Shown: piece after piece, positions 44,001 to 62,861 of the stretch | How the letters are laid out: every line of letters starts with the position of its first letter | How positions within the stretch are numbered: position 1 is the stretch's first letter | Virus record (IMG/VR): IMGVR_UViG_3300045988_147865 | Span: 1-63,626 of that record | DNA: 63,626 nt | Reading direction: 5' to 3' (one strand) | Source: a virus | The notes under the pieces: model-generated | What the model was told of the DNA's origin: nothing | The model's database searches: none | The model's input: the letters and a program-made list of their open reading frames with translations, nothing else | Position numbers and translations under genes: made by a program

Positions 44001-47000
44001 TGATATAGAAGCGAAGACGAGAATCATTCAAAAGCATTTCTACTGCCAGATTATCCTGCGCCTCAGCCACCTTCTCCATATCCTCATTGCTAACAATCTT
44101 CACCGGGATGCCAGCCTTCTTAAGCATAGCAGATACAGCATCATAAGCCACCCTCTGCGCCTCTGTCAGATTCTCCGGCTTCACCTCCTTCACATCGCGG
44201 TCAAATTTCGCCTGTTCCTTCTGTACCATAGCATACTCCGCAAAAGGCTTAGTCTTGCGGTCAGAAGACTCCAGCCACTTGTCAAAGGTAGCCTTAGGCA
44301 CAGCAGTAACCTTACCAAGTCCCTTCCAGCCTTTAGAGTAGTTGGCAAGATAAGCCTTTGTAGCAGCCTCCTCAGAAGGATAGCCATAAATTACTTTATG
44401 CTCATCAAACTCTCCAGTCTCTGGGTTCACCTGGTCAACAACATAAACGTTACCATCAAAAGTATCAAGGTCTGCGGCATCATTGATGAACATATCAATA
44501 TGGTCACCATCAACGCCAATTTTACCAAGAATATAGCCGTAAGTATCGTGCATGGTCACGCTCCAAGGCTTACCCTGCTCGTCCTTACCGCTGCGAGTCA
44601 CGCCCTTTGGTGTTTCTACGGTATAATCGTAGCCACCAAAGGACAAATGACCTTTTTTGTAATTGCCAGCCTTCTTCTGAGCCTCTGTAGGTTCGGTCTC
44701 AGTTTCGGCAATGGCACTCTTTAAACGTTCTCCGAAGGATGCTTCTTGCGGTAGATGTGAGCCTCGAACAGTTGAGCCTTCGCCACGTTCCAGGCTGCCA
44801 GTCTCTTGTCGCCCTTTGCGTCCGCTATCAGAGCCTTCTCCAATCTCGGACTCAGAAGATGCTTCTCCGTTACCAACTTCTTCGCCTTGGCTATTTCCTT
44901 CATCAACTCCTCTCCGTGAAGAGTCGCTACCCAGGCTACTGCCTCCTCCATATCCTTCATCATTGCTTCTGTCATCATAATCTGCTAATTCTGGTAAAAT
45001 TGATTTGACATATTGTTTATATTCTCGTTCACGATCCTCAATCTCCATCATGCGGTCATATTCTAGCCCATAGATGTGATCAAGTTCGCTTTCAGACGGC
45101 AAAGATAACTCTTTTTCGTGAATATACGATTTATATTTCTCAATTTCTGCCTGTCTTTCGAAAATTTCTCGCTCTTTCTGTGCTTCGTAATACTCTTCCT
45201 CGCTTGAAAGTTCATCTTCTGCAGCAGCTATGCGGTTCATCAGAGCCACATTTCTCATTTCCTTCACGCTGTCATAAGACTTGAACATATCAAGAAGGGC
45301 ATTACGAACATCCTGGTCGGTATATCCCATATCCTGCAAGTTTACAGGAAGGTCATTATATACTCTCACGGCAAATTCGTTAACCGACATACCGGTTCCT
45401 TTCTTGGCAATAAGATAATTGAACTTATTAGAATCATACCCCTTGCCAATACCAAACTTAAAATTGCTCTTGCCCAACTCATATTGAAGAGATTCTGGAT
45501 TCAAGCTATGAGGAAACAAAGACTCTGACACAGCCTCTTCGAGAGTCTGAGGAGTTAAGTCCATCACATCAACGGAAGCATCCTTATATATTTCATGGAT
45601 AGCATTCATATCGTTCTTCTTCAGCGCGTCAGCCACCAATGCCTTGCGTTGCTCTGAAGGTGTCATGCCCAGTTTCTCCATTTCCTGCTTGCTAACTTCC
45701 GTTTTGTAGAGTCTGCTGAGTTTATTAGCCTGAGCCTTCAAACCCTTGGCAGCAACAGACAAATTAGTCTGCAGGGTCTTCAGTTGAGCCTTTGTAGTAT
45801 TCAATTCCATGAGTTGGGTAGGGTCCAGCTCTGTTTCGCCATTGATATACTGATCCAGCATATCATTCACATCATTTATCTTGCGCTCCACATCCTCCTG
45901 GGTATGATAGAGGTCTTTGCGCTGAGAAGTAATATAGTCGGTAGCCTTATCCATAGTTGGATATTGCTTCTTCAATTCTTTATCATCAAGTACGAGTACA
46001 TGGAAATCATCAGATGGCACGATGGCAGATTCATCAACACCAGCCTTCTCTACCTCAGCCTTGCGCTCCTCCTTCATAGCTTTCACCTCATCAGGAGTCA
46101 TCACACTGTTGCGGATAGTATTCCAGTTCTTGAAACGAGCATCAAGATCAGCAATCTGCTCATTAACCAGACTCAACTCATCCTCCACCTTCTTAGCTTT
46201 TTCCGGGTCAAGATCGGCATTGGTATCAAGCCAGTTCTGATATTCAATAGCAGCCTTTCTCTTGTTGGCAAGTTGCGTTTTTATGTCATCACGGCTGCCA
46301 TTAACCAGATTCAAAAGTTTGCCATGGTCTTCCCCAAACTGCTCCTGCAGATACTCAGCCGCCACATTTGGATCTGAATCCTTAGAAGAATAGTCCGGCT
46401 GACCCTCGCTCAGCCCCACGATGCCATTGGCATAACGTTGTTTCTTATCAGCCTCAGCCTGAGAAGCTGCTTTCTGCTCACGTTCAACGTCCTCGGCATC
46501 CAAATGCTCATTAATGGTATTGTCGAGCGCATTCTTGCGCCATGCTGCAAACTCTTCTTTAGACAAAGGAAGATAATCTTTGCCATCAGTAAGTACAATT
46601 TTTCCGTCCTCGCTATATCCGGCAAAGGTCATGTTGACATTAGCATCACCCTCCTCCATGGCAACTGTTACCTGATCATTCGGTTTCAAACCGCTGCCAT
46701 CAAACTGGCTGATAAACTGCTGCGCTCTTGCATTTTTCTGCTGAGTCACCATATTTTCGATGTATTCATCAAGAGAAACAGGAGTGCCCACCTCTCTAAT
46801 CTCGGCATTAGATACCTGCTTAATTGTAGCCTGTCCCTGCTCATCAGGAACGACAACAAAGGCTCCACCATATTCGTTGGCCTTCTTCAGGAACACCTGT
46901 TTTCCACTATCCAAAGTAGCTGGCACGATGTTTCCGTCTTCCGTCTGGTATGGCCAGAGCTGCTGCTTCAACGCCTCACCATAGCCATCATCAGCATGCT

Positions 47001-50000
47001 GCAGAGCATCAATAGCACCCTTCTTGGCATCCATAGCCTCCACATACTTACTGATAGCCTCTTTCTGTGCCGGGGTCAGACTGGCACGCTGAGCCACAAA
47101 CTGCTCCATATCTCTACCCTCATTATAGGCATTGGCTACAATTTCAGGCATCTTCTCGTTATCAGCAAACGCTCGCTTCAAACGTCCTGTTGCCAAATCG
47201 CTATTATAGTCGATAGCCTGCAAAGCCTCAGAATCCCCATTCTTATAGGCATTCTGTCCCATAACAAAAGCATCAGAGTTTGCAACCTTAGGCTCATTTC
47301 CTGCACCCTCAGCAGCAGAGTTTGCAGGGTTTGCAGCAACTTCTGCATCACTCGGAGTTGGTACGGAGTTGGTACGGTCTTGATATGGAGCAGGTTCCTC
47401 TGAAACAGGAGGCTCCTGACCACCAGCTGAACCCTCTACAGAAGCAGGTCCCTCAACAGGAGTAGCTGGTTTTGCGCCATCAACATCGCCCTGCTCTATA
47501 CGTTTTTTATCATCCTCTATCTGCTTCATTTCACGTTTCAGTTCAATGGAATTGTAAAGTTCCTTAAGATAAGACTCAACCAAAGGTGCATATTTCTTAT
47601 CTTTCGACTCCAAAGCCTTACGAAGTGTACCGCGCGCCACGCCATGGGAATCCTCAAACGTGTTGACAAACTCCCTCATCACAGAACTATTCTCCAGAGC
47701 ACTGTCATAATAATGACGGTAGGCGTTAACCTGCTTCTGCTCCTCGTCAGTAAGGATAATACCCTTCTGCTGCTTATCCATGATGTCTTTGATGGAACCA
47801 GCATTCTGATGAAGATAAACCGCTGCCTTATCCTCATCTGTCAATTTCTCACCCATATTGTATTTCTGGGCTGCCTTGTTGTATAAGCCATCAAGATGCT
47901 CCTGCGTAAACTCATTGTGGAACTCACCTTCCAGCACAGAAGCCAAACCAAGAGTCTTCTCATACTCCAGTTTCTTATCTGCCTTCTGAGCCTCATCAAG
48001 AGAAGAAAACTCCTTTCTCTCAACAATACCGCCATCCTTATTTAAGGTTTCGAGATAAACCTTGCCACCATTATCCATTGGCTGCACGATGATGGAATCT
48101 ACAATAGGCGAGAAAGAAGAAGGGCGCTTGCCTTCTACAACTGCCATCATCTTAGCCTTCAACACCTCCGGTACGCTCTTGTCGTTCATCAGGTCCATAT
48201 ACTTCTGGGTTAACTGCCCATCAAGTCGCTGAGCATTCTCACCAACCACAGCATACTCCCCGATGCCCATCTTCTCAAAAGCATCACGAAGACCATCATA
48301 GCCGAATCGTTTCAACTCGGCAATATCCTGATCAGTAAAGTCAAACTTCTTGTTAAACTCCCTCGCATCCTTGAATCGGGCATACTTGCCCACAAAACCA
48401 GGGAAACCAATAGACAAAAGATTAGCACCACTCTCCAAGAAAGTTTCAGCAGCATCCTTGCCGGTAGGCTTGAAATTCGGGTCGTGCGCCATACGCTCCA
48501 ACAACTGCTGACCGGTCATAATACCGGAATCCACAACCTTACCACCAATATCAGCAAGAATATTGGTAGCTAAGCCTCTGCCCTTACCTACCATGTTAGC
48601 GATGGTTCCACCCTGCATGATAGCACCTACGGCACTCTGTTTAGCCACTTCGCCCAAAGTGTTGGCAATAACCTTACCCACAGAAGGATTGTAAATCTTG
48701 CCATTCTCATCGAACTGACCTGTACGATAAATCTCATCAATAGGCTTCGAGATTGCAGACTGACCACCAAAGGTAACAGCACCATGCGCGGCTCCACTCT
48801 TCAAAGCCGCGGCCTTACTCTTACCGATAAGCACCTTGGCAACTCGCTCAGCCACCCTACGCTCCATACCCTTAGCCATGAGGTCACCAGCCAGTTTACC
48901 CTCTGCCTTGGCTACCATGCTCTTAGTCAACTTGCCACCTGCGGCTCCCGGCAGCCAATAACTCCAGGCATCACCTGCAAAGGTCAGAGCACCACTAGCC
49001 ACGTTCTCCCAGAAGCCCGGATGATACTGCTGATTGGCAATATCCTCCAGCCAGTTCTGGTAGTCCGTCTGCATAATCTTGCGAGATACCTTGCCGATGA
49101 TGGTGTTCTCTATACCTGTCTTCAGGATATAGTCTGCACTACCTCTAGGTATCATGCCCTTCACCTCCAACTGATCCAACTCATTCTTGATGGCAGCATT
49201 GATCATTGGCTTGAACTGCTTAGGATCACCACTAAGAGTGCCATTCATGCCATATCGCTGCATCACCTTAAATGCCGCATTGCTCATATCATTCAGGAAC
49301 TCTGGATTCCGGTAGAGCTTGCCAAACTTCTGCTGCAAACCGCTCAGAATCTTCTGAGGGTCGCGTGTCTTGTTTGCCTCAGCGATAGCACCAATAGCAA
49401 AAGGAGAAGCAGCATCCACATACTTAGACTGCTCATTATACTTCGCCATCTGTGCATTAGAAGCCGCCTCTGCGTCCTGAATAGCCTTAGCTACAGATGT
49501 ACTGGTATATTTGCTGATAACGTCAGAAAGCGCATCATTGATGTCCTGATTCATCAGTCTGTCCTGTACATTCTCATCGTGAGAATAGAGGCGTGTAGCA
49601 ATACCCTCAGCGATGTCACGATAGTTCGGACCATACTTGTTAACCAAACTCTGTACCATAGCTGGCTTCAAGAACAGTCCCACATAGTCATCATAGCTGA
49701 TACCCATGTTATATGCCTCCTGCTTCAACTTATCCTGCACGCCATGGCTATACCATTGCGCTTCAATACTCTTCTCTGCATCCTGCACAGTATCATCAGG
49801 CAAAGAAGATACTACCTGGTTGGTAACGTCCATGGCAGAGCGATTGGCATATCTGTGCAAAGCAGGCATCACCATATTCACAGCCTCCTCATTGCTATTG
49901 GCAGTACCATCAGCCAACAAGTCGGCAACCAAATTCTCAAAGTAAGTACTCTGCTTATCCGGTCTCTGCTTCCAGTCCTCAATATAGTTGGCAAGTTTGG

Positions 50001-50559
50001 CATCCATCAACCCCTCATTATTCACCACACCGGTTGGAGTCGTAACAGGAGCCGCCTCTTTAGATTCAGGAGAAGCCGCATTAGCTGATGATGAAGAAGA
50101 AGTTTCTTCCTTCACTGGCATTTCCTCACCTTTTACAACTGGCTGAGGAATCTCTGGTGATGGCTGATATGTTCCGTTGCTCGTCTGAACACCAGTAGGA
50201 ATCATATCCAAAACTTTTGCTATAAGACCAGGAACCTTGTCTGTTGTTTCCTGCTTCTTTGCTGGTTGAGCCACCTGCGGCTTAGTTTCAGTAGAAGCCT
50301 TCTGCTCTACACTCTGAGTCGTAGCAGAAGCATCTACCTGCTTACCACCACCAGAAGTAGATGGAGCTGGCTCCAGCACCATCTTGTCAAAGTCTGCCTG
50401 TGTTCCCACATCATACCCCATGTTCTTGGCCTCATTGTAGTACCAGTTACGATCTTCCTCGTTGTTCAAGTCCTTTTTGAAGTCATCATAGCTACCTACT
50501 TCATAGCCATTGTTCTTGAACTCATTATAAAAATATTGTCTGTCTTGCTCGTCAAACAT
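35002..50559 (-). CDS. Giant polyvalent virion/ejection protein (5,185 aa).
   Basis: Single uninterrupted ORF between the portal block and two further virion-type ORFs. Contains several recognisable enzymatic modules separated by low-complexity linkers (see domain features). Confidence 0.85.
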   Translation of the reverse strand: MFDEQDRQYFYNEFKNNGYEVGSYDDFKKDLNNEEDRNWYYNEAKNMGYDVGTQADFDKMVLEPAPSTSGGGKQVDASATTQSVEQKASTETKPQVAQPAKKQETTDKVPGLIAKVLDMIPTGVQTSNGTYQPSPEIPQPVVKGEEMPVKEETSSSSSANAASPESKEAAPVTTPTGVVNNEGLMDAKLANYIEDWKQRPDKQSTYFENLVADLLADGTANSNEEAVNMVMPALHRYANRSAMDVTNQVVSSLPDDTVQDAEKSIEAQWYSHGVQDKLKQEAYNMGISYDDYVGLFLKPAMVQSLVNKYGPNYRDIAEGIATRLYSHDENVQDRLMNQDINDALSDVISKYTSTSVAKAIQDAEAASNAQMAKYNEQSKYVDAASPFAIGAIAEANKTRDPQKILSGLQQKFGKLYRNPEFLNDMSNAAFKVMQRYGMNGTLSGDPKQFKPMINAAIKNELDQLEVKGMIPRGSADYILKTGIENTIIGKVSRKIMQTDYQNWLEDIANQQYHPGFWENVASGALTFAGDAWSYWLPGAAGGKLTKSMVAKAEGKLAGDLMAKGMERRVAERVAKVLIGKSKAAALKSGAAHGAVTFGGQSAISKPIDEIYRTGQFDENGKIYNPSVGKVIANTLGEVAKQSAVGAIMQGGTIANMVGKGRGLATNILADIGGKVVDSGIMTGQQLLERMAHDPNFKPTGKDAAETFLESGANLLSIGFPGFVGKYARFKDAREFNKKFDFTDQDIAELKRFGYDGLRDAFEKMGIGEYAVVGENAQRLDGQLTQKYMDLMNDKSVPEVLKAKMMAVVEGKRPSSFSPIVDSIIVQPMDNGGKVYLETLNKDGGIVERKEFSSLDEAQKADKKLEYEKTLGLASVLEGEFHNEFTQEHLDGLYNKAAQKYNMGEKLTDEDKAAVYLHQNAGSIKDIMDKQQKGIILTDEEQKQVNAYRHYYDSALENSSVMREFVNTFEDSHGVARGTLRKALESKDKKYAPLVESYLKELYNSIELKREMKQIEDDKKRIEQGDVDGAKPATPVEGPASVEGSAGGQEPPVSEEPAPYQDRTNSVPTPSDAEVAANPANSAAEGAGNEPKVANSDAFVMGQNAYKNGDSEALQAIDYNSDLATGRLKRAFADNEKMPEIVANAYNEGRDMEQFVAQRASLTPAQKEAISKYVEAMDAKKGAIDALQHADDGYGEALKQQLWPYQTEDGNIVPATLDSGKQVFLKKANEYGGAFVVVPDEQGQATIKQVSNAEIREVGTPVSLDEYIENMVTQQKNARAQQFISQFDGSGLKPNDQVTVAMEEGDANVNMTFAGYSEDGKIVLTDGKDYLPLSKEEFAAWRKNALDNTINEHLDAEDVEREQKAASQAEADKKQRYANGIVGLSEGQPDYSSKDSDPNVAAEYLQEQFGEDHGKLLNLVNGSRDDIKTQLANKRKAAIEYQNWLDTNADLDPEKAKKVEDELSLVNEQIADLDARFKNWNTIRNSVMTPDEVKAMKEERKAEVEKAGVDESAIVPSDDFHVLVLDDKELKKQYPTMDKATDYITSQRKDLYHTQEDVERKINDVNDMLDQYINGETELDPTQLMELNTTKAQLKTLQTNLSVAAKGLKAQANKLSRLYKTEVSKQEMEKLGMTPSEQRKALVADALKKNDMNAIHEIYKDASVDVMDLTPQTLEEAVSESLFPHSLNPESLQYELGKSNFKFGIGKGYDSNKFNYLIAKKGTGMSVNEFAVRVYNDLPVNLQDMGYTDQDVRNALLDMFKSYDSVKEMRNVALMNRIAAAEDELSSEEEYYEAQKEREIFERQAEIEKYKSYIHEKELSLPSESELDHIYGLEYDRMMEIEDREREYKQYVKSILPELADYDDRSNDEGYGGGSSLGSDSSRRGVDEGNSQGEEVGNGEASSESEIGEGSDSGRKGRQETGSLERGEGSTVRGSHLPQEASFGERLKSAIAETETEPTEAQKKAGNYKKGHLSFGGYDYTVETPKGVTRSGKDEQGKPWSVTMHDTYGYILGKIGVDGDHIDMFINDAADLDTFDGNVYVVDQVNPETGEFDEHKVIYGYPSEEAATKAYLANYSKGWKGLGKVTAVPKATFDKWLESSDRKTKPFAEYAMVQKEQAKFDRDVKEVKPENLTEAQRVAYDAVSAMLKKAGIPVKIVSNEDMEKVAEAQDNLAVEMLLNDSRLRFYIKTPEQKEAAKAAYDWAAKNRPDKFKQYAIVNMDNPNEPPQYFEKKDLAEKWRKYYTNAWKIGNYKAFNLNKPFEEQIKDVKGDVPSEFDPYKAESLLNKRIELEKQIKETEDSYNAKKKERAEYQNQLMQDYMDQHGLSSENDIPDDVWTDYRDKSFEKYQDTLDDLFHKYVELDNQLKAVAEPGVQYLKGKGVVYGYTDGKEIVLNQEHLNPNTPIHEYQHLWRTAAKEMNPELIEHGDKLIMQTQLFADLKQDPNYNHLTDEQICDEAFARLTGEDGAAILEQMAKDAIKENPLDTAKELSVINKLKEWLKKFWYWTLDTFTKWKPEDIKKMTLEDIRNLVLRDLANGVDPRTKLHEAENADDIKFMGSTTKKRMKNVASQFEGRELDKAQQVVADVYSGKDNNKDFSFTSGGAERIMVMRQGNDDHAGTKHSLYRHFGVNKNYITVDDILSLPKMLNVSTRKPSKKGTIEYSYTDKESGVTYTVVTKPVGNKEHFQNFYSDRKANPSDASHVAEGNTYTPEGARKTDGNAFMRAKVDNNSETAKENGENLSVEDKIKAVSQQFGVDEADVAMYANAIKKGSTAEAARARANIRRHLMQVNEDNISSLKDIAKYTKPVNNALKENFGDLDAMLEERRKQVEAERNAMEAARKRAEEEEAKRQKHLEELSLIPDDQLDKQYMDALAKGDDATAREMLDEAARRKGYDDTESAYQGVGAWAAPGNPGYESDKARRDDWESSGSDVNLEDIALGYTPQPDDYFSHPERYSQNTPHGLESVKAINAAIDAIKNGEKDVKVKVYRAVPTSVKEGKLRNGDWVTPSKKYAEMHGTNRLEGKYRIIEDEVPANQLWWDGNDANEFGFDDGKAYKYKNAKNNRKLNDLVTYDDNGDVIPPSKRFNSRKQDVRFHRVTEPEELDRLNKEKTFRMYSGMQEVDGKLYSPMAAIIDGKRTDATEIGAWMGADERPDLVKNGKFQLVKTDKNPGAGEGPVPAAYNPYMHTSTSVMNDQFSGAYARGNIKVVEWEIPESEKTSGYHAEGAKDSVGLVPWTSGTVNSLLPKDRQRSVMLSRWRKAVRIVPDEEVAEKIAAQLSGTGLAIPWNVVTPNQLRELAKLGVPITTVEQGRQNPEVKEKFLEQMADLKKEFPQAQFVDVKMTKDAFKEWGGKGIVKSPIMQQKLKKHPDSLMKAGTYFSGGGLVEEGLKGIIDPVVAVEYDRKISGVYRNNFGQHIVTADVRDVDPKELVKHIDGEVEYFHASPVCKNYSQAKSNSGEVELDKETAKSTAEFIDAVKPRVVTIENVKGYKDSEAMKIITKTLDKNGYTWDSDVYNAADYGGYTSRERLIIRAVKDGELPEKPKKQPRKGGWLEAVEDILPTLTVKESGVAPWMDARLKADGIDWQKVEKPLYVMGSAYADGKIPHAYGDDILPTLRTKSGDVIIMPGGKVLRADGRVLARITGLGDDYKLPKTESLAHTIIGNGIPVQLTQGVIAPLLNKDDLSGRNVLARLGSSIFKNNWDADKQKQVSDRVVNTANKLGGAEATVYTSVDEVPDAYLSDVKNGATGWYDPTTHTVHVYLPNCADANEAERTVLHEKIGHEGMEVLLGGEDGVRKFANFVYRSVGKDVRGKIIDFANKYDPDWKNPDRMNVGTQEYIAHLAEDGPKSAEDFTLWTKIKHYLIKLLKKLGVRVPGLLNDKDLRYYLMKAGKALHVWDEMPQEKQEAMMKQASNAEIKDALGDGAGKGKPRQKKGESTIQYMKRVQEWRKWQNAREDKENPEPPMFYDIDKDEAGKKEWAKLNKDWRERHHLVGEEPTGMPIRMEGEEDDAYMNRIHEYEKWQAAMKDQEDPLPDMFAFEKKKQEEVKRKYEDWLVKHDLLEQQQADLDLYEGKIYPAETNPKADALEQQVMQDLAEVTSTDVSKEGAAKTVKHAVIHRRKNMEEASADDAIYINDVKNRIEKMADSGVFDKLLSDYKGKKNRAEKLAETIPYIIEAPRRLRDMAHNLNATGVFDKGHIHIQPSDVEAIQPYVTDLITETAKKHIEIKKGKEIEVYDDPKAVSEVASKMAQAINANHQGEEGFVPCDGTDILSKHVLKLVKERVVPGRINYKELSPEMQAAIDSIRDWYNYTYDWLMDNHALKAGTGYNVDYVNHIWDKEKSDPEAYATFVENRQRTKSPNEKPRTISTLMEGIYAGLVPKTTDITKMMAYYSRSNIEAWANKTMLQELTGLNVIERNEKGEVISTDPLLSSSAPFNLEQYKYFEIPGVGPVWVYNVSPKQVKVKNPITGKEKVIYSEASAGDRFGVVFDTYQSSPFWKTFDTLASSAKKLELGFSGFHAGALTEVYMVQNMVEFGPKKAMANFMKYIFADTAKNHELPCFANPEDFQEAASHLVKFGATNDYAAADVQNMFDNMRNAMMKVQEKLKDGNGISGTVAKASMPLTVATQMLSLINKGMDVALWDFLHDGLKLATYRMRADKTKERAKKKGWSAEELNRALDEDGQFVNDMFGGQHWDVLGASHRTLRYAGRVLLSPDWNASTTRHFLALTGFGSIWNEATFENFKQYYKRLKHKELTPEDEGRRSRQISALLCYGIGFMVFYEGIANGINAAFRAMDEEKERKKAEEIRKTNPSYKSMYELAYGDEGMKWYDYLMRGNSLGQQSKIFLGRYEDGTEMYVRHGKQFREVPEYLFNHKGELEFPGPMVQRMIGKANPMVRMTLDDINYLSDFQASHADQEIQRKYGKTIGLLYKDALYWAPFLIPSQENKEFKAVDFFFPSSKGFSPWKAQSYFKDFILSGDMEGVVMTYQSCQRNGIDPEAQIKAAIGSVKALESAEMSDGVTSLQEASKRFDAAKSITEKKKMRQKMKKFLSQSDYKAFTQKEALDMVQGYLNGDEDLKEMEKAESKYLMKAKAEDVTEDWRIQNVWNGTIETYQEYQRLKDVDKAKANAFKNSKTNKRLFAARKAISAAKKKMNKAKKQMDGQNDAARLVEIRKIRKELLKTLNGME
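38945..39335 (-). other. Domain of the giant ORF: zincin-like module 2 (HEKIGHEG), a paralogue of module 1.
   Basis: GWYDPTTHTVHVYLPN...TVLHEKIGHEG ... IAHLAEDG ... IKHYLIKLLKKL, collinear with module 1. Confidence 0.45.
39540..40440 (-). other. Domain of the giant ORF: C5-cytosine DNA methyltransferase.
   Basis: Motif I YFSGGGL (40410-40437), motif IV SPVCKNYS (about 40225-40240), motif VI ENVKG (40105-40113), motif VIII TSRERLI, motif X GNGIPV (about 39566-39583). Confidence 0.8.
43035..43440 (-). other. Domain of the giant ORF: zincin-like module 1 (HEYQH).
   Basis: VVYGYTDGKEIVLNQEHLNPNTPIHEYQHLW ... FARLTGEDG ... KLKEWLKKFW. Confidence 0.5.
44230..44670 (-). other. Domain of the giant ORF: inorganic-pyrophosphatase-like module.
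   Basis: GNYKKGHLSFGGYDYTVETPKG ... YGYILGKIGVDGDHIDMF. DGDxxD resembles the PPase signature. Confidence 0.45.
44700..44990 (-). other. Domain of the giant ORF: S/G/E-rich low-complexity linker.
   Basis: GGGSSLGSDSSRRGVDEGNSQGEEVGNGEASSESEIGEGSDSGRKG... Confidence 0.7.
48430..49020 (-). other. Domain of the giant ORF: Gly/Ala-rich hydrophobic segments.
   Basis: GFWENVASGALTFAGDAWSYWLPGAAGG ... GAAHGAVTFGGQSAI ... AVGAIMQGGTIANMVG. Confidence 0.5.
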
Positions 50560-53036: not shown

Positions 53037-54515
53037 CTATTTTATGTCCCTGACTCGCTCAAAGTACTTCGTCTGGTCCTTGGTGATATTCTTCACCTTG
53101 ATCTGTATCGTGCAGTTCTTAGGCACAGTATCATTTATGCTGTCCATGAGCTGTTCTATTATCTCATCTGTGTTCCGATAGCCCTTGCCATCCACATGAG
53201 CCACAACCTCACCCATAAAGTAAGCATCAGCTGACAACTCAAAGTTTTCCTCTACCTTATCGAATACAGGCAGATGATGTTCCTCCAGGCGTTTGCTCTT
53301 GTCGTTAGTAAAAAACACCTTCTCAACAATTTTCTCGTTTATCTCCCATATCTTTGAAAAATCCGGTTTCACATATCCCATAGTGATTTTATGCCTATTA
53401 ACATGATTTAATCCGAATGCTACATCATCGAAACTAACTCCAAGATCATTTTGAGCAATAGTTGCCCATGTGTGCCTGAAGGTATAGGTAGAATATGTTT
53501 TATCACCTTGTTTCATTCCAAGATAATTAAGACAGATTAAACGAATCTCGTGACTCTGGCTTGCAACAAAATTTCTATCATTAAGAAACATCTTATGAAA
53601 CTTGAAAAGATACTCATCTTTCTCATCACTTAGATATTTCTCAATGGTAGGAATTAACATGTCGGGAACTCTGATTTCTATATAAGCCTTATCCTCTCTT
53701 CTTGTTCTCGTCTTAGCGCGCTCGTAATGCAAAATTCCATCATAATAGGCAGTCTTCTTCATCCTATAGAGATCAACACCATTAATTCCTGCTAAGCAAA
53801 GCGTCATTTTGCAAATATCCTGAGCCATCTTTCTAGCCTTCTGGGTTACATTAATGGCAAAAAACGCTCTACACTCCTCCATGGTAATAGCTTTTTTCTC
53901 AGGTACATCATGCTTAGGAATCTTCACTTTTGCCCAAGGATTCACCTTTATACGAATGATGTCATTATCATAATCATTATATTTAAGAAGTCCAGCCTTA
54001 AAGATGGTTTTTATTGTGACAGGGTATGTCTCTTTAACTCGCTTGAAACAAGATAATGAATCTATCCACGACTGTATAAAAGACGTAGTCATCTGAGAAA
54101 ACATTATCTTATGAGTCCCAGCGAATTTTTCCAAAGCAACCAAAGATGCTTTATTTAATTCTACTGTTCTTTGCTGGTGCGTATAAGAAATCTTATCAAT
54201 ATATTCTCTAGCATAATCAGAAAAGCAAAGATCATCATGAGAAGCCAAAAGAAGATCTCTAACCTGTTCTGCCGACAAATTAGCCGTATCATATCTATTA
54301 AGCATTTCCACCCACTTTGTAATCGTCACCATACAGGAGTTAAGAACAAACGGATCCTTCACTTCACGCTTACCAGGAACCACACCCTTACTGTTCACCA
54401 TCTTGTCTGTTTTGATGTTGATTATTCTGCGTTTATGTGTTAAACGTATATAGACTACATAAAGTCCATCTGAACGTTGATGTTGTACCACTACTTTAAA
54501 TGTTGCCATACACAA
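53037..54515 (-). CDS. int: Tyrosine recombinase/integrase (Bacteroides type, arm-binding N-terminus).
   Basis: N-terminus MATFKVVVQHQRSDGLYVVYIRLTHKRR (arm-binding-like). C-terminal catalytic strings YTFRHTWATIAQ and GLNHVNRHKITMGYV. Confidence 0.8.
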   Translation of the reverse strand: MCMATFKVVVQHQRSDGLYVVYIRLTHKRRIINIKTDKMVNSKGVVPGKREVKDPFVLNSCMVTITKWVEMLNRYDTANLSAEQVRDLLLASHDDLCFSDYAREYIDKISYTHQQRTVELNKASLVALEKFAGTHKIMFSQMTTSFIQSWIDSLSCFKRVKETYPVTIKTIFKAGLLKYNDYDNDIIRIKVNPWAKVKIPKHDVPEKKAITMEECRAFFAINVTQKARKMAQDICKMTLCLAGINGVDLYRMKKTAYYDGILHYERAKTRTRREDKAYIEIRVPDMLIPTIEKYLSDEKDEYLFKFHKMFLNDRNFVASQSHEIRLICLNYLGMKQGDKTYSTYTFRHTWATIAQNDLGVSFDDVAFGLNHVNRHKITMGYVKPDFSKIWEINEKIVEKVFFTNDKSKRLEEHHLPVFDKVEENFELSADAYFMGEVVAHVDGKGYRNTDEIIEQLMDSINDTVPKNCTIQIKVKNITKDQTKYFERVRDIK

Positions 54516-54731
54516 AAAATTCTATAAACAATTTCTAAACATTCACCTCAATTTGACACGTTAAACTTGCCAAACGATGTATTTTTTATTTAAAATAACC
54601 CTCTAATATCTGAAACTTTGCGCTATATCTCAGAAAATCAAGACATTAGCACAAGAAGACTAATATTAGCGGTTCACTCATAGTAATATCCTATAATCAC
54701 TATAGTTTTGAAGCATTTCTCTAAACTATCT

Positions 54732-55358
54732 CTATTCTTTTGATAAGTCAAAGATATAAATGTTTCCATTAACAGGAACCTTCAATATCAAGTTCTGAGC
54801 CTTTGGATTCTTCGCAACAACCATACCATAACGCATTTGACCGGCATTGATAGTTACACGCTTGAAGTATCTACTATTAATACTTGCCTCTGCTTGTGCC
54901 CTAGCCTCATCATTAGCGTTGGTTACAACCTGGGCTTTAGTTTCGATGGTTGTAGTCTTACCATCAGCTCCTTTAACATTAGTGCTTACAGACTGCTCCT
55001 CTACATTATTTGGACCCCATAACAGAATCCTTGTCTTTTCTTTCTTCACCCATTCATCACAAGTGTACACTTCGCAAGACTCAGTCTTATTCTTGTTAAT
55101 AGCCTCAACTTGTATTTTTGATGGGTCAAAGTTAAATCTATTCTGACTCTGGTTAATAATCGAAACATAAAATTCCTGATGTTTGGTTATCTTTCTATCA
55201 TCTTTTTTAGAGACAACAACTATTACACCATCATCACCATCAACCTGTATACCTTTATTTCCTGATTCATAACCAACAGTATACTTCTCAAATGTTTTCT
55301 GTGCCATTGCCGGAACACTCAAAAGAAACATTGAAAGAGCAAATAAAATCTTCTTCAT
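54732..55358 (-). CDS. Secreted/periplasmic protein (signal peptide).
   Basis: MKKILFALSMFLLSVPAMAQ leader. 208 aa. Confidence 0.55.
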   Translation of the reverse strand: MKKILFALSMFLLSVPAMAQKTFEKYTVGYESGNKGIQVDGDDGVIVVVSKKDDRKITKHQEFYVSIINQSQNRFNFDPSKIQVEAINKNKTESCEVYTCDEWVKKEKTRILLWGPNNVEEQSVSTNVKGADGKTTTIETKAQVVTNANDEARAQAEASINSRYFKRVTINAGQMRYGMVVAKNPKAQNLILKVPVNGNIYIFDLSKE

Positions 55359-55388
55359 ATCTTAATCCATTTGAAATTTAACCATATA

Positions 55389-55742
55389 TCATTTACCGCA
55401 CCAGCCACATAAAGTTTTGCCTTGATCAATGGCACTAGCCTCATCTGTAGCAGTTATCTTGCCTGTAGTTCTCTTAAGAGCTGGGCAATTTCTGTCCTTG
55501 TGGTACCGCTTAGAACCTGGACTGTCTGATACATATACGTTGCCTCCTGCTGTTACCTCAGTTTGGAAGCCATCAGCCTCAGCATTACTAGAAGAGGAAG
55601 ACAACCTGCCTATTGCAAAGCCAAGCATCAAGAAGCCAATGCAGAAGGTCACTAGACCAAAGCAAAAGAACTTCTTTGAAAGCCTCAGCTTTCTGTCTAT
55701 ATCTTTAATTTGTGAATCAACCATATTCTCTTTCATTTTCAT
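55389..55742 (-). CDS. Single-pass membrane protein with a C-terminal YH...C...CxxC metal-binding module.
   Basis: TM FFCFGLVTFCIGFLMLGFAIG. C-terminus VYVSDSPGSKRYHKDRNCPALK...EASAIDQGKTLCGWCGK. Confidence 0.55.
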   Translation of the reverse strand: MKMKENMVDSQIKDIDRKLRLSKKFFCFGLVTFCIGFLMLGFAIGRLSSSSSNAEADGFQTEVTAGGNVYVSDSPGSKRYHKDRNCPALKRTTGKITATDEASAIDQGKTLCGWCGK

Positions 55743-55748
55743 TCATAT

Positions 55749-57095
55749 TTAATGATTATACGCACGTCTAAAACCTTCTTGAATAGCCTCGGCAATTTCG
55801 AACTTATAGCCTTTTCCCTTGGCGTTAATCTTCACCAGGTCATAATGCCTATCAAATGGCAGATGGTAAATCTTATGACCTGTATTATGATTTATATTAC
55901 ATTTAATGGCCGGAAACCTATCCATAGGCAAACGTCTAACCTTAACACCTAGCAAATTGGCACATTTGATAGCTTCAGGAGACAAGTCACAAGTAATATA
56001 AAGCCAGGGTTCTACTTCCACACCTTTGATTTTATCTTCATTATCCAACTTCCATTGAACAAACGAGCCATATAATTGAAAAACAACATTTTCCCGAACA
56101 AGCGAACTCCAATTTTTACATTGAACAATCAGGATCTTTCCTGTCTTTTTATGCGTTGCAATAATATCACGTCCACCATCTTCCAGTTTCTTATTTAAGC
56201 CTTCCTGAATAATGTCGTAATCTTCATTAAAAAGCTTGTAGGCACAATATATCTCGTAGTTGCGCCCTTTCTCCCAGTCTGACCATTTAGAACTATCAGA
56301 AATGTAGCGATCCACAGCCAACTGCTCTCTGCCTTGTTCTGTCATCTGAAAATATTCATTATCAGACAACCAGTTTCTAATATTACACCTCTTCTCTTCT
56401 TCATGCATATAATTGATATAAGCATCATCATCCTTAAATTTTCCCAATTCAGGATATATAGAAAGAAGATATTCAAACTTATATTGATATTTAAACAAAG
56501 AAGCAAGCCCCTCTACATTAGAATCAATATACATGTTCTTGTGTTCCAAAGCATGAGCACGAAGATGGGCAACATAATCAAATGGATTCTTTGCATTAAT
56601 CATCTGATCAAAATCATCTACTTTCTGCTCCAGATTCTTAATGTCAGATTTGGCGCATTCATACTTATCATATAGTTCACGATAAATATATTCCGCCTCA
56701 TCAAGCTCTTTCTTTAGCTTGGCATTCAAATCCTGCAATTCATTTTTTTCGAAGTTCAATCCATGGACAACAGTTTTCTGATTAGATAACTCTACAGTCT
56801 GCTTGTTAATCATTTTAAGCTTTGATTCAACATCTGATTCCAGTTGCCTTATCAAATCCACCTGCCTGGCATTCAGATCTGCCAATATGGATTTCTCCTT
56901 CTTAATCTTTTGCAATTCTTCTCCTTGCCGGGTAAAATCAGCCTTCCATCTTTCTATTTGATTTCGAAGCATATTAATAGTACTATTGAAGTATGTCATA
57001 TCAGCAACAGGTTCATTCTTTTGGAATATCCCCAGTAACAACACAACAATAACAACAACACATAGAACTACTATGATCAGCAATACACCATCCAT
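55749..57095 (-). CDS. Membrane-anchored coiled-coil protein with an Mrr-type PD-(D/E)xK restriction-endonuclease domain.
   Basis: N-terminal TM (LLIIVVLCVVVIVVLLLGIF), about 200 aa of coiled coil, then YEIYCAYKL...EDGGRDIIATHKKTGKILIVQCKNW (Mrr_cat pattern), then a KIYHLPFDRHY...AEAIQEGFRRA tail. Confidence 0.65.
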   Translation of the reverse strand: MDGVLLIIVVLCVVVIVVLLLGIFQKNEPVADMTYFNSTINMLRNQIERWKADFTRQGEELQKIKKEKSILADLNARQVDLIRQLESDVESKLKMINKQTVELSNQKTVVHGLNFEKNELQDLNAKLKKELDEAEYIYRELYDKYECAKSDIKNLEQKVDDFDQMINAKNPFDYVAHLRAHALEHKNMYIDSNVEGLASLFKYQYKFEYLLSIYPELGKFKDDDAYINYMHEEEKRCNIRNWLSDNEYFQMTEQGREQLAVDRYISDSSKWSDWEKGRNYEIYCAYKLFNEDYDIIQEGLNKKLEDGGRDIIATHKKTGKILIVQCKNWSSLVRENVVFQLYGSFVQWKLDNEDKIKGVEVEPWLYITCDLSPEAIKCANLLGVKVRRLPMDRFPAIKCNINHNTGHKIYHLPFDRHYDLVKINAKGKGYKFEIAEAIQEGFRRAYNH

Positions 57096-57446: not shown

Positions 57447-57551
57447 ATTAAAATCCTTTAAATGTTCAACAAAGTGGGTTAATATATACTAATAATGCCC
57501 ACCAAACCATACACTTTCAAAAAGTTTATTGTACTTTTGCACCGTAAAGTT

Positions 57552-57600
57552 AGTAAATAAATAAATAAGTACCAAATAAATTTGAAGAAAAATGAAGAAA
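57552..57600 (+). repeat. Upstream copy of the duplicated early-operon leader (pairs with 57827..57875).
   Basis: ACCAAATAAATTTGAAGAAAAATGAAGAAA versus ACCAAATTAATTTGAAGAAAAATGAAAAAA (28/30). Flanking sequence is also similar. Confidence 0.7.
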
Positions 57601-57696
57601 TTAGATAAAATATTTCCGGAATCGGCAAAAGCAGAGGATGGATAGAAAAGAAAAGATGTTTGTCTTTCTGTGATTTGGCAACACCTCCCTTCCGCT

Positions 57697-57720
57697 GTTT
57701 GCTAACGGTCATTAGCAAAC
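57697..57720. promoter_or_regulatory. Palindromic operator candidate (GTTTGCTAA-N6-TTAGCAAAC).
   Basis: 9-bp perfect inverted arms. A further half-site, TTAGCAAA, lies at about 57826-57833. Confidence 0.45.
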
Positions 57721-57726
57721 AAAAAA

Positions 57727-57751
57727 GCCCCCTCCGTTGCAGTGAGGGGGC
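57727..57751 (-). terminator. GC-rich hairpin with a T-run on the - strand.
   Basis: gccccctc pairs with gagggggc. The - strand continues TTTTTTG. Confidence 0.5.
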
Positions 57752-57826
57752 TAACATAGTCCGTTGTTATGGACAAAGGTTTCCAAAGCATGGATGACTC
57801 CATGAATAATTTGCTGGTGCAAAATT

Positions 57827-57875
57827 AGCAAATAAACAGATAAGAACCAAATTAATTTGAAGAAAAATGAAAAAA
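57827..57875 (+). repeat. Downstream copy of the duplicated leader (contains ATG 57867).
   Basis: See 57552..57600. Confidence 0.7.
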
Positions 57876-58157
57876 TATAATGAAGCTTTCGATTTTTTTG
57901 TACTTGAAATACTTCTTAACTACAAGGGTATTGACGAGGAAAAGGCAAAGCAGGTAAAGCGTTTCTGGCTAAGAGAAGAACTCTACAACTACTACGGAGC
58001 ATCACATACTAAGGAAATGGAAGAAGCCTTCGAGTGGATATACAATGCGTCACTGATAGATTGGGAAGGTATGCTGCTATGTATAAAATATCCAGACAAC
58101 AAGACCTTCCCAAAGCCATTAGAAGATGCTAAGAAGTTATTCGCTTTTCTCAGCTAG
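57867..58157 (+). CDS. Hypothetical early protein.
   Basis: 96-aa ORF, first gene of the rightward early operon. Confidence 0.55.
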   Translation: MKKYNEAFDFFVLEILLNYKGIDEEKAKQVKRFWLREELYNYYGASHTKEMEEAFEWIYNASLIDWEGMLLCIKYPDNKTFPKPLEDAKKLFAFLS

Positions 58158-61219: not shown

Positions 61220-61654
61220 ATGGAATCAGAAAAAGCAAAGTCAGACCGCATAGCCAGGCAGCGAGAATACTATCTTAAGCATCGTGATAAAATGCTCGCC
61301 TATTCTCGCAAATACATCAAGGATCATCCCGAAAAGAAAAAGCTATATCGGGAAAATGCAGCCAAGAAACGAGCCAACGGCACTGGATATTATCAGAGAT
61401 ACTATCAGCGCAACAAAGAAAAATTGCTGGAAAAATCTAAGAGCTGGAGACTGAATCACCCCGAAAAGGTGAAGGAGTACCAGCGCAGATACTATCAGAA
61501 GAAAAGAGCTGCAGCAAAGAAAGAAAAGAAGATAATGCTGAATCCAGATATAGATAAGGCAAAATCCCTCTTCCGTGATCCTTCTAAGACTGTTCACCTA
61601 CAGTGGCTCCTGGAGCACAACAGAAACAAAAGTAAGCAATATGAATCACGCTAG
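61220..61654 (+). CDS. Basic repeat protein (about 30-aa YYxxxxEK...HPEKxK repeats).
   Basis: QREYYLKHRDKMLAYSRKYIKDHPEKKKLY / YQRYYQRNKEKLLEKSKSWRLNHPEKVKEY / QRRYYQKK. Confidence 0.55.
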   Translation: MESEKAKSDRIARQREYYLKHRDKMLAYSRKYIKDHPEKKKLYRENAAKKRANGTGYYQRYYQRNKEKLLEKSKSWRLNHPEKVKEYQRRYYQKKRAAAKKEKKIMLNPDIDKAKSLFRDPSKTVHLQWLLEHNRNKSKQYESR

Positions 61655-62861
61655 TTTATTCAGCGGAATCGGTGGTGCTGAGGTCGCGGCATCCATGATG
61701 GGATGGCAGAACCTCTTCCATTGCGAGATACAAGAGTTCCCTCGCAAGGTGCTCCAATACTGGTTCCCAAATTCAGAAAGTTATGAAGACATTACCAAAA
61801 CAGACTTCACAAAGTGGCACGGCAAAGTCGATGTTCTCACAGGAGGATTCCCCTGCCAACCTTTCTCCCTCGCTGGCAGAAGAAAGGGAGCGGACGATAA
61901 CCGCTACCTCTGGCCACAGATGCTTCGAGCGATACGGCAGATACACCCCACTTGGGTCGTTGGTGAAAACGTTGCTGGCATCAAGACGATGGTGGAGTCC
62001 TGCCAAGTCACTCAGATGGGACGCACAGACTATCTTTTCGAAGAGAATCACCTATACCGAGAGGAAAGCCGATTCACCCTCGACAAAATCTGTGCAGACC
62101 TCGAAGCCGAAGGATATTCCGTCCAACCGATTGCTATTCCAGCTTGTGCCATCGGAGCACCTCACAGAAGAGACCGAGTTTGGATTGTTGCCCACACCCA
62201 ATGCGATGGACCTTCCTCACAAGGACATGGAAATCAACGAGCGAGGGCGAAGAAATCCAAAGAAGGGCAAGACAGACCACAGCCTAGGTCTAGAAGACAT
62301 GGCAGTGGCACAACTCCTTCCTACGCCCACGGCACTCGACAAAGGAGGAGGAAGAATAAACAAGAGCCTTTCACCGAATGCAGCAGAACGCCCAACCTTG
62401 GCACTCGCCGCTCGAAAAGGCTTGCTTCCCACTCCTTGCAGCATAGAAGCCACGAAGTTCACCAAGACCATCAATCCCAATTCCCAGATGGGGCAAGGTC
62501 TAACAGCCTTGGCGGTCAATGGTCTTCTTCCCACTCCTACGGCAATGGAAGTAAAACACTCCAACCGGGTGAAGGGTCTGAAAGAACAGGGTGTAAAAGG
62601 GATGTACAGCCGAAAGAACGGAGCACTTCGCCCGAATGGACTGACCGACTTTCTCGACTTCAACAATCAGGTAGGTGGCGGAACTTCCCAACTCAATCCC
62701 CTGTTTGTAGAGGAAATGATGGGATTCCCTTTGATGTGGACAGCCTTACCATTTCTTTCCCCAAGTGGCGACAAGAATCCATAAAGGCTTACGGCAATGC
62801 CTGGGTGCCACAAGTGGCTTACGAGATATTCCGTGCCATCGAGGCAGAAGAAAACAAATAA
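61641..62861 (+). CDS. C5-cytosine DNA methyltransferase, frame A (motifs I, IV, VI, VIII and X present; central about 180 codons are low-complexity R/S/Q/G-rich).
   Basis: MNHASLFSGIGG, GGFPCQPFS, VVGENVAG, APHRRDRVWIV, then NFPTQSPVCRGNDGIPFDVD...KAYGNAWVPQV. ATG 61641 lies within ORF 61575..62861. Confidence 0.7.
   Translation: MNHASLFSGIGGAEVAASMMGWQNLFHCEIQEFPRKVLQYWFPNSESYEDITKTDFTKWHGKVDVLTGGFPCQPFSLAGRRKGADDNRYLWPQMLRAIRQIHPTWVVGENVAGIKTMVESCQVTQMGRTDYLFEENHLYREESRFTLDKICADLEAEGYSVQPIAIPACAIGAPHRRDRVWIVAHTQCDGPSSQGHGNQRARAKKSKEGQDRPQPRSRRHGSGTTPSYAHGTRQRRRKNKQEPFTECSRTPNLGTRRSKRLASHSLQHRSHEVHQDHQSQFPDGARSNSLGGQWSSSHSYGNGSKTLQPGEGSERTGCKRDVQPKERSTSPEWTDRLSRLQQSGRWRNFPTQSPVCRGNDGIPFDVDSLTISFPKWRQESIKAYGNAWVPQVAYEIFRAIEAEENK
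61783..62784 (+). CDS. Overlapping +1-frame ORF (frame B) encoding four LLPTP repeats and an NPLFVEEMMGFPLMWT tail. It may be an alternative frame of the methyltransferase or an overprinted gene.
   Basis: 333 codons open, entirely inside frame A. LLPTP at 62185, 62314, 62422 and 62524. Composition is protein-like, unlike the frame A middle. Confidence 0.4.
   Translation: MKTLPKQTSQSGTAKSMFSQEDSPANLSPSLAEERERTITATSGHRCFERYGRYTPLGSLVKTLLASRRWWSPAKSLRWDAQTIFSKRITYTERKADSPSTKSVQTSKPKDIPSNRLLFQLVPSEHLTEETEFGLLPTPNAMDLPHKDMEINERGRRNPKKGKTDHSLGLEDMAVAQLLPTPTALDKGGGRINKSLSPNAAERPTLALAARKGLLPTPCSIEATKFTKTINPNSQMGQGLTALAVNGLLPTPTAMEVKHSNRVKGLKEQGVKGMYSRKNGALRPNGLTDFLDFNNQVGGGTSQLNPLFVEEMMGFPLMWTALPFLSPSGDKNP

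Follow-up and report, generated by a model that had tools for sequence, protein, structure and literature searches.

A putative membrane-tethered Mrr_cat nuclease in a variable slot between the repressor and integrase of a temperate phage

We analysed a 63,626-nt stretch of viral DNA (positions 1 to 63,626 of the IMG/VR record IMGVR_UViG_3300045988_147865, hereafter the window), focusing on three genes at 54732–57095 that encode a 448-aa protein with an Mrr_cat-type nuclease core, a 117-aa single-pass membrane protein (p117) and a 208-aa exported protein (p208). A preliminary description of this DNA had read the three genes as one prophage defence or exclusion cassette. On balance, we favour another explanation, namely that the nuclease is a single-gene, membrane-tethered accessory gene ('moron') which shares a hypervariable slot adjoining attP with two envelope morons unrelated to it.

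The slot between repressor and integrase and its cargo

The three genes are packed between the gene of a CI/XRE-type helix-turn-helix (HTH) repressor and that of a tyrosine integrase (Table 1). This layout of open reading frames (ORFs) agreed with the preliminary description, and all motifs quoted there were found in the ORF translations. The repressor, which carries a short zipper-like helix at its C-terminus, leads the leftward operon as its first gene; it and the genes for the nuclease, p117 and p208 are co-oriented and separated by intervals of only 18, 6 and 30 nt. A further 216 nt lie between the p208 gene and the integrase gene, which probably begins with the ATG at 54509. The remaining DNA of the window is that of a tailed phage and includes genes for terminase, portal, tail fibres and methyltransferases. 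Many relatives are carried on contigs of 61–64 kb, and we regard the phage as temperate, with a genome of about 62 kb. Its host is probably a Bacteroidota bacterium, since SusC-like TonB-dependent receptor and BACON-domain genes flank integrated relatives.

Table 1. Features of the repressor–integrase region of the window. Residue numbers refer to the 448-aa protein; TM, transmembrane; AF2, AlphaFold2; pLDDT, predicted local distance difference test.
Feature	Coordinates	Strand	Evidence
CI/XRE-type HTH repressor, 110 aa	57114..57446	-	Pfam HTH_3 E 2.6e-7, also HTH_31, HTH_26; PHROG transcriptional regulator/repressor families
448-aa Mrr_cat nuclease, whole gene including stop codon	55749..57095	-	ORF, Pfam, AF2, Foldseek
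Predicted N-terminal TM helix, residues 2–23	57027..57092	-	AF2 helix
Long single coiled-coil-type helix (stalk), residues 32–166	56598..57002	-	AF2, pLDDT about 90–96
Conserved helical domain, residues 171–272	56280..56585	-	AF2 helices 171–266; motif ...ER(N/E)QLA(L/V)DRY...
PD-(D/E)xK (Mrr_cat) core, residues 273–390	55926..56279	-	E281, D310, Q325-x-K327
Predicted C-terminal 'sunset' domain, residues 391–448, beta-beta-beta-alpha	55752..55925	-	NCBIfam NF051437; AF2
117-aa single-pass membrane protein (p117)	55389..55742	-	ORF
208-aa exported protein (p208)	54732..55358	-	ORF
Intergenic region, expected to hold attP	54516..54731	.	inferred from relatives
Tyrosine integrase	53037..54515	-	PHROG_1 integrase E 1.5e-16; Pfam Phage_int_SAM_5

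L001, a relative in the integrated state, matches L002, a relative in which the integrase has stayed beside the cargo, without any difference until ∼105 nt past the last cargo gene; from there, L001 continues into host DNA and L002 into the integrase gene. Host genes also directly follow the cargo in L003, L004 and L007, as they do in L001. The attachment junction at ∼105 nt places the slot at the extreme end of the prophage. In the same comparison (L001:8419–8530 versus L002), the neighbouring host HAD-hydrolase ORF takes its first ∼20 nt, ATG included, from the phage end. The position claimed earlier, that of a lysogeny operon between a CI-like repressor and attP/integrase, was thereby borne out, and we infer that the slot is expressed in lysogens.

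If the three genes formed one system, a membrane nuclease would partner p117 through a common C-terminal module, with p208 as a further component. Their tight packing and co-orientation speak for this, as does the presence of the same trio in a 100% identical relative (L012/L112). The genes behind the nuclease, however, change from phage to phage. In all 23 close loci, which were found through the nuclease, the repressor lies directly upstream of the nuclease gene, and the cargo behind the pair consists of the 117- and 208-aa proteins, of the 208-aa protein alone, of 197- and 111-aa proteins, of a 297–307-aa lipoprotein, or of a 319-aa lipoprotein or 323-aa M48 peptidase. Among these loci, a p117 of 89% identity accompanies a nuclease of only 63%, and a p208 of 99% identity accompanies a nuclease of 72%; such a disparity points to separate exchange and argues against one system.

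To avoid ascertainment bias, we took a census of 51 informative loci of related phages that was anchored on the repressor. Since these loci are non-independent, coming largely from one metagenome project, and the Fisher tests were uncorrected, we claim from the census only the absence of a positive association. The nuclease was present in 11 loci, p117 in 25 and p208 in 16, and all three occurred together in a single locus, which is the window's own type. We found an odds ratio of 0.16 for the nuclease and p117 (p = 0.04), which would at most mean that they avoid each other, and neither the nuclease and p208 (p = 1) nor p117 and p208 (p = 0.56) were associated. Each gene also occurs alone: p117 lacked the nuclease in 23 of its 25 census loci, as it does in L104–106, and p208 in 13 of its 16. 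In phages whose repressor is 98–99% identical, the place of the nuclease is taken by a lipoprotein of 165 aa and a membrane protein of 122 aa, and other nuclease-less relatives carry proteins of 191, 130 and 159 aa plus a p117 homologue. The proposed three-gene cassette thus failed the survey of co-occurrence, and we are confident that the genes do not form an obligate three-gene system. We conclude that the region is a hypervariable accessory slot of a temperate phage, holding three independently acquired genes.

The alternative cargo of the slot is nearly all exported or membrane-bound (lipobox proteins, proteins with signal peptides and multi-TM proteins). Examples from relatives include LLxSC-type lipoproteins, a secreted M48 peptidase and multi-TM proteins (L104:4091–4989, L107:294–791, L006:7151–8044, L009, L013, L022 and L004:7360–8331), and PADLOC gave no match for 10 alternative cargo proteins. 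In three nuclease-less loci (L107:793–873, L108:1390–1470 and L109:977–1057), the final 27 codons of the repressor gene recur, with 85–89% identity, after the first cargo gene, a duplication that looks like a recombination scar at a cassette junction.

Architecture and spread of the nuclease

The Mrr_cat-type PD-(D/E)xK core reported earlier was supported by a Pfam match (PF04471) over residues 300–347 that exceeds the curated cut-off (26.4 bits versus 21; E 7.8e-6). The AF2 model of the 448-aa protein reached a mean pLDDT of 86, with values >90 across the nuclease core, and in this model the core has an alpha/beta restriction-endonuclease-like fold. Foldseek paired it with NucS (2vld, E 1.9e-5), EndoMS, AF1548, Hjc, MspJI and Card1 (structural matches in the PDB: 2vld, 5gke, 1y88, 2wj0 and 4f0p), as well as with viral proteins labelled 'restriction endonuclease'. 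E281, D310, Q325 and K327, which make up the E...D...QxK signature of Mrr-type PD-(D/E)xK enzymes, were invariant in 56 diverse homologues down to 26% identity, so that none of the catalytic residues was lost on alignment. The protein is predicted to cleave DNA. Its N-terminus is formed by the TM helix and the coiled coil, and neither Mrr_N nor any other reader domain was found in it. Outside the core, Pfam, NCBIfam and PHROG scans gave no recognised domain for DNA binding or for the reading of modifications. As far as profiles and residues can tell, the 448-aa protein is a true Mrr_cat PD-(D/E)xK member without the reader domain of the type IV enzyme Mrr.

AF2 also placed a helix where an N-terminal TM helix had been claimed. 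The stalk that follows is a continuous coiled-coil-type helix, as predicted earlier, but it comprises about 135 aa instead of ∼200 aa; its library matches (SMC, CALCOCO1 and Rz-like spanin) were coiled-coil noise only. For the helical domain, no family was matched in Pfam, PADLOC, NCBIfam and PHROG scans. In an alignment of 56 sequences, Q258 of this domain was invariant and Y205, P215, E247, R256, A260 and D262 nearly so. The tail, modelled as three strands (397–401, 408–411 and 429–431) and a helix (434–439), held nine invariant residues in the same alignment (K398, I409, Y410, H411, P413, D415, Y418, A437 and G441). With the 'sunset' model NF051437 (cut-off 27 bits), the window tail scored 19.5 bits over profile positions 1–22 only, and in two relatives the match covered the full profile, with 26.9 and 28.1 bits, suggesting that the nuclease family carries a sunset domain of which the window copy would be a divergent member.

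The protein has 1300 homologues, most of them with a precomputed PF04471 match, and an exhaustive HMMER search yielded 1247 clusters at 50% identity, 374 of which were below E 1e-30. The part common to the clusters corresponds to residues about 200–448, the proteins are 217 to 728 aa long, and RefSeq names the members 'restriction endonuclease' only. We calculated regional identities from 80 homologues that were <90% identical. The stalk had a mean identity of 43% with 16% gaps, compared to 82% for the helical domain, 77% for the nuclease core and 87% for the tail. The tail is accordingly the best-conserved part of the nuclease and the stalk the variable, indel-rich one; length variants, mainly of 378–474 aa, differ mostly in the stalk. 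This variability suggests that specificity evolves in the stalk or TM region.

At least one N-terminal hydrophobic segment was present in 128 of 139 family representatives, and 53 of the 139 (about 38%) had two; the window protein has a single TM helix. In single-TM members, a mean of 0.24 K+R residues precede the TM helix and 3.2 follow it, with more after than before in 64 of 70 proteins, and the positive flank is C-terminal to the TM in two-TM members too. Because of this excess, we predict that the stalk, nuclease and tail are cytoplasmic, and the protein is very likely a membrane-tethered cytoplasmic nuclease. The family-wide positive-inside statistics led us to reject a periplasmic nuclease with a spanin-like TM and coiled coil, a candidate raised by weak Rz-like PHROG matches.

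We also scanned a set of 185,579 species, with one genome per species, for distant members. This gave 469 matching stretches, from which we kept the best 80 distinct loci, close relatives excluded. Hosts include Bacteroidota, Bacillota, Melainabacteria, Alphaproteobacteria and others. In 25 of these 80 loci, an HTH gene of the XRE/CI type, co-oriented with the nuclease gene, ended just upstream of it, and Pfam assigned HTH_3 to 20, Peptidase_S24 to 11 and Phage_CI_repr to 5 of 67 upstream ORFs. A tyrosine or serine recombinase was found ≤4 kb away in 25 loci; 34 loci had an HTH gene or a recombinase, and 16 had both. Other immediate neighbours were AbiH (3 loci), AbiU2, RhuM, PIN_12, an OLD-like TOPRIM protein and DUF4238. 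Across the 80 loci, we found no conserved neighbour beyond the repressor and recombinases, as would not be expected of a fixed three-gene system. Since no other neighbour is conserved and the linkage to repressor and integrase recurs, we regard the family as an accessory module of one gene that strongly prefers the prophage repressor–integrase interval. On a Hymenobacter plasmid (L167; NZ_CP010057.1 84233–95021), a 398-aa member annotated 'restriction endonuclease' adjoins a DUF4238 gene, and an FRG-domain gene lies about 3.3 kb upstream of the nuclease homologue. DUF4238 is reported as a defence gene of P2/P4 hotspots.

p117, p208 and other features of the window

p117 has 119 homologues, one of which is named 'Metal binding domain of Ada' in nr. 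Its translation shows five K/R residues before the TM and one after it. We therefore predict an N-in orientation, in which the C-terminal H/C/C/C domain (YH..C...CxxC) should be external, that is, periplasmic; H74, C79, C112 and C115 are spaced plausibly for four zinc ligands. The preliminary description had taken this C-terminus for a cysteine-containing version of the nuclease tail. We could not substantiate such a shared module. A comparison of the two tail profiles with hhalign gave a probability of 2% over 16 columns, the p117 tail had no match to NF051437 at E ≤ 10, and the predicted locations, cytoplasmic for the nuclease tail and periplasmic for the p117 domain, put the two on opposite sides of the membrane. 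All three results argue against a partnership through a common tail.

A weak likeness concerns Ada. The isolated tails of both proteins matched no Pfam family, including Ada_Zn_binding, and PDB sequence searches with the tail profiles gave nothing significant. In hhalign runs with the Ada N-terminal sequence, which is identical to that of 1WPK, the ...EA..G(F)R/C..C segment of both tails was placed on Ada residues 57–75, far below significance (probabilities 0.8–3.3%). At a probability of 0.8%, the CGWC of p117 (C112, C115) falls on Ada Cys69 and Cys72; the matching of H74 and C79 to Ada Cys38 and Cys42 lies outside the alignment and is our own reading from the spacing. In contrast to the Ada N-terminal zinc domain (1WPK, 1ADN), the nuclease tail lacks the cysteines. 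The weak alignment of both tails to the same Ada segment counts in favour of a single system, and because the register is the same but far below significance, we keep an Ada-like fold common to both as a reasonable lead only.

Small exported proteins of 78–85 aa with a YH..C...CxxC pattern occur at L035:6775–7011, L044:7018–7266 and L090:8334–8591. They follow downstream of nuclease homologues of 34–42% identity at distances of 16 nt, 1 nt and 1.5 kb, respectively, and are too few to tell partnership from a shared slot, although such proteins behind distant nucleases speak for a single system. Three of the slot lipoproteins of the relatives described above have an LH..C...CxxC pattern like that of p117. 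The same cysteine pattern is thus also found in several slot lipoproteins with no nuclease nearby, and we read it as shared residence in the moron slot, not as partnership.

For p208, we found 25 homologues. Inspected by eye, without a predictor, its N-terminus resembles a signal peptide (MKKILFALSMFLLSVPAMA/QK) and lacks a lipobox cysteine. The AF2 model (pLDDT 78) is a beta-sandwich with two helices, and the best PDB match, YjhA (3cfu), was marginal (E 7e-3 only). A weak Pfam match to DUF3465 was under the cut-off and we made no assignment. In another locus (L110:62–5472), a 60% identical p208 homologue adjoins a tetratricopeptide repeat (TPR) protein and a type I restriction–modification methylase/specificity-subunit pair, on a 6-kb contig with no visible phage genes. 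We regard p117 and p208 as separate envelope morons, each acting alone, and as candidates for superinfection exclusion or surface modification.

Elsewhere in the window, a single 5185-aa ORF (35002–50559, minus strand) matches InPase (PF18823, E 6e-50, ∼aa 1959–2097) and a C-5 cytosine DNA methylase (PF00145, E 3e-27, ∼aa 3377–3673), with the rest unannotated. It is reminiscent of phage 'polyvalent proteins'; at its place, relatives have ORFs of >1947–2068 aa that run off the locus. A separate 428-aa DNA methyltransferase (61575–62861, plus strand; PHROG_363, E 2e-71) belongs to the rightward operon. We noted a 56-nt direct repeat (57546–57601 and 57821–57876; 88% identical) in the regulatory region that separates the repressor from the divergent early gene; its second copy overlaps the start of the plus-strand gene at 57867. 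Both copies hold ...AATTTGAAGAAAAATGAA..., and the first has a TAnnTTTG-like motif, as in the Bacteroides −7 element. The divergent promoter region also holds, upstream of the repressor gene, a GC-rich hairpin with a T-run (CCCCCTC, 9 nt, GAGGGGG, CTTTTTTGTTTG; 57716–57750, minus strand). Owing to its 9-nt loop, the hairpin escaped the terminator scan; it could terminate a short leftward transcript.

Possible function of the nuclease

The preliminary description recognised no named defence system in the three proteins, and PADLOC-DB v2.0.0 likewise had no significant match for them: the nuclease gave only coiled-coil-type matches (best PbeC, E 5e-4, residues 44–190), and p117 and p208 gave none. 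Nor did we find a description of the TM/coiled-coil/Mrr_cat/sunset architecture in the literature on prophage lysogeny modules. A membrane-tethered nuclease mechanism nevertheless has experimental precedents in SNIPE and ShdA, both of which are non-homologous to the 448-aa protein. SNIPE (PD-lambda-1) of E. coli has been demonstrated to be a membrane-tethered nuclease that cuts incoming DNA (Saxton et al., Nature 2026; PMC13190303), which is the mechanism that had been proposed for the window protein. It is a single protein with an N-terminal TM, a periplasmic N-terminus, a cytoplasmic body, an elongated middle and a C-terminal nuclease, an arrangement that we predict here as well, and its N-terminal region is variable and its nuclease conserved (PMC13190303), as in the 448-aa family. 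The parts differ, however: SNIPE combines a GIY-YIG (T5orf172-type) nuclease with a DUF4041 middle, whereas the 448-aa protein has an Mrr_cat core, a long simple helix, another helical domain and a sunset-like tail. In it, we found no DUF4041 (Pfam, E ≤ 1), no PADLOC PD-lambda-1 match and no GIY-YIG domain. SNIPE is also chromosomal, whereas the 448-aa gene is prophage-borne and directly follows the repressor.

The PD-(D/E)xK superfamily contains RmuC as well as Mrr_cat. The Shield protein ShdA of Pseudomonas is membrane-bound, has a TM helix at its N-terminus and its nuclease in the cytoplasm, and suffices for defence on its own (Macdonald et al., PLoS Genet 2023; PMC10270631). Without their TM, both SNIPE (PMC13190303) and ShdA (PMC10270631) were unclonable or toxic, which the authors blame on DNA damage. 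The 448-aa protein differs from Shield in that it has no RmuC (PF02646) Pfam match, a nuclease of the Mrr_cat subfamily and an extra, sunset-like domain; a weak match to the PADLOC model 'RTasRmuC' (E 1.4e-3) covers residues 4–162, that is, the TM and coiled coil, and not the nuclease. Epona, a cassette of the V. cholerae superintegron, joins Mrr_cat to a holin-like two-TM domain, acts against phages as a single gene and is nearly confined to V. cholerae (bioRxiv 10.1101/2024.07.02.601686). Judged by this description only, it resembles the 448-aa family, about 38% of which has two hydrophobic segments, in combining Mrr_cat with transmembrane segments in one gene; the description mentions neither a coiled-coil stalk nor a sunset domain, and the window protein has one TM and no holin family match. 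The nuclease thus resembles SNIPE, Shield and Epona in its predicted design and is a member of neither SNIPE nor Shield.

In its position, the nuclease gene recalls other exclusion genes. The rexA-rexB genes behind lambda cI, lactococcal Sie2009 and Ltp of S. thermophilus lie beside or are co-transcribed with the repressor, or stand between repressor and integrase. The likeness is one of position only, seen in the window and in 25–34 of the 80 distant loci; in library scans and the p208 structure search, nothing was related to RexAB, Sie2009 or Ltp by sequence or by fold.

Judging from its domains and surroundings, we lean towards an anti-phage or anti-mobile-element role for the nuclease. Its gene would be co-transcribed with the repressor in lysogens. 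The TM helix would then anchor the protein in the inner membrane, away from the nucleoid, with the ∼135-residue helix as a stalk, and foreign DNA, be it from a superinfecting phage or possibly other mobile DNA, would be cut on entry; alternatively, the nuclease might be released or activated upon infection. The fast-evolving stalk and TM region may set its specificity or reach, the sunset domain may help to bind DNA, and self-damage could be limited by localisation or auto-inhibition, as in SNIPE. That cleavage takes place specifically at the injection site, by analogy with SNIPE, we find rather doubtful. Only tentatively, and with slightly less doubt, do we propose that the TM/coiled-coil/Mrr_cat/sunset architecture could define a widespread single-gene immunity family, mainly in repressor–integrase modules of temperate phages of Bacteroidota, Bacillota and further phyla, with tethered cutting of incoming DNA that protects the lysogen, specificity in the stalk or TM and an Ada-like, zinc-less sunset domain as a DNA clamp; it would be a PD-(D/E)xK counterpart of SNIPE of independent origin.

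Several points weigh against a defensive moron as we picture it. Expression of the operon from the repressor promoter was assumed from spacing alone, and our promoter and terminator scan was uninformative, with 14 sigma-70 sites versus 13.5 expected from shuffling and Bacteroidota promoters not modelled. No PADLOC v2 model matched beyond coiled-coil noise, and among the deposited phages of INPHARED neither the 8-kb region (megablast) nor the nuclease (tblastn) had a match. About half of the distant loci have neither a repressor nor a recombinase nearby, and the family is therefore not exclusively prophage-borne; where the association with repressor and integrase is present, it would fit any lysogeny-expressed moron equally. 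The loci of the census, mostly from a single project as noted above, are not independent samples. Finally, if its helix is straight, the stalk of ∼135 residues could hold the nuclease off the membrane by about 20 nm, a reach that weakens a simple membrane-sequestration argument.

The main rival is release triggered by infection, as proposed for Shield. The protein would be a latent tethered nuclease that infection or envelope stress releases or activates, upon which it degrades host and phage DNA, either for population protection (as proposed for ShdA) or as a prophage addiction module. We consider this unlikely, although the intact PD-(D/E)xK core without a recognisable sequence- or modification-reading domain would suit such a toxin, as would the behaviour of ShdA and SNIPE without their TM helix. 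The Abi-type neighbours in distant loci (AbiH, AbiU2 and PIN) point the same way, and the XRE-type HTH gene directly upstream resembles a type II toxin–antitoxin layout. However, the upstream HTH proteins are often CI/LexA-type phage repressors with an S24 peptidase and not antitoxins, the HTH gene of the window faces a divergent early operon, and, since some phages have the same repressor but no nuclease, the pairing of the two is not obligate. We could identify neither a protease site nor a trigger.

Less probable still is a role outside defence (in lysogeny control, excision or the processing of host DNA at induction), or that of a membrane-tethered type IV enzyme acting on any modified DNA. 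Linkage to repressor and integrase across phyla would be in keeping with the former, and Mrr_cat is, according to its Pfam description, the catalytic domain of the type IV enzyme Mrr, in a phage that itself encodes DNA methyltransferases. The nuclease is dispensable in the lineage, however, and its absence beside a 98–99% identical repressor led us to reject the part in lysogeny control that the tight linkage had suggested. It also occurs outside prophage modules, as on the plasmid with DUF4238, it is oriented with the repressor and not with the lytic genes, and the scans for a DNA-binding or modification-reading domain outside the core were negative. A single three-gene defence or exclusion system is very improbable given the census, the unequal identities, the lack of a significant match between the tails and the varied neighbours of the distant loci.

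If the nuclease of our favoured explanation, a single-gene membrane-tethered moron, does serve in defence, the few membrane-tethered nucleases known (SNIPE, Shield and Epona) would be joined by a large family of >1200 clusters at 50% identity in several phyla. After SNIPE and Shield, the concept of a tethered nuclease is no longer surprising. Given a defence function, the design would have evolved repeatedly on different nuclease folds. The repressor–attP slot of this phage lineage is a hotspot of cassette swapping, mostly for exported proteins and lipoproteins, and tight packing and co-orientation within it should not be taken for a functional system. The nuclease family is common in gut Bacteroidales and Clostridia. 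In the case of a defence function, temperate gut phages would routinely carry a nuclease in their immunity region, which would bear on phage–phage competition in the gut and on the host range of phage therapy in Bacteroides.

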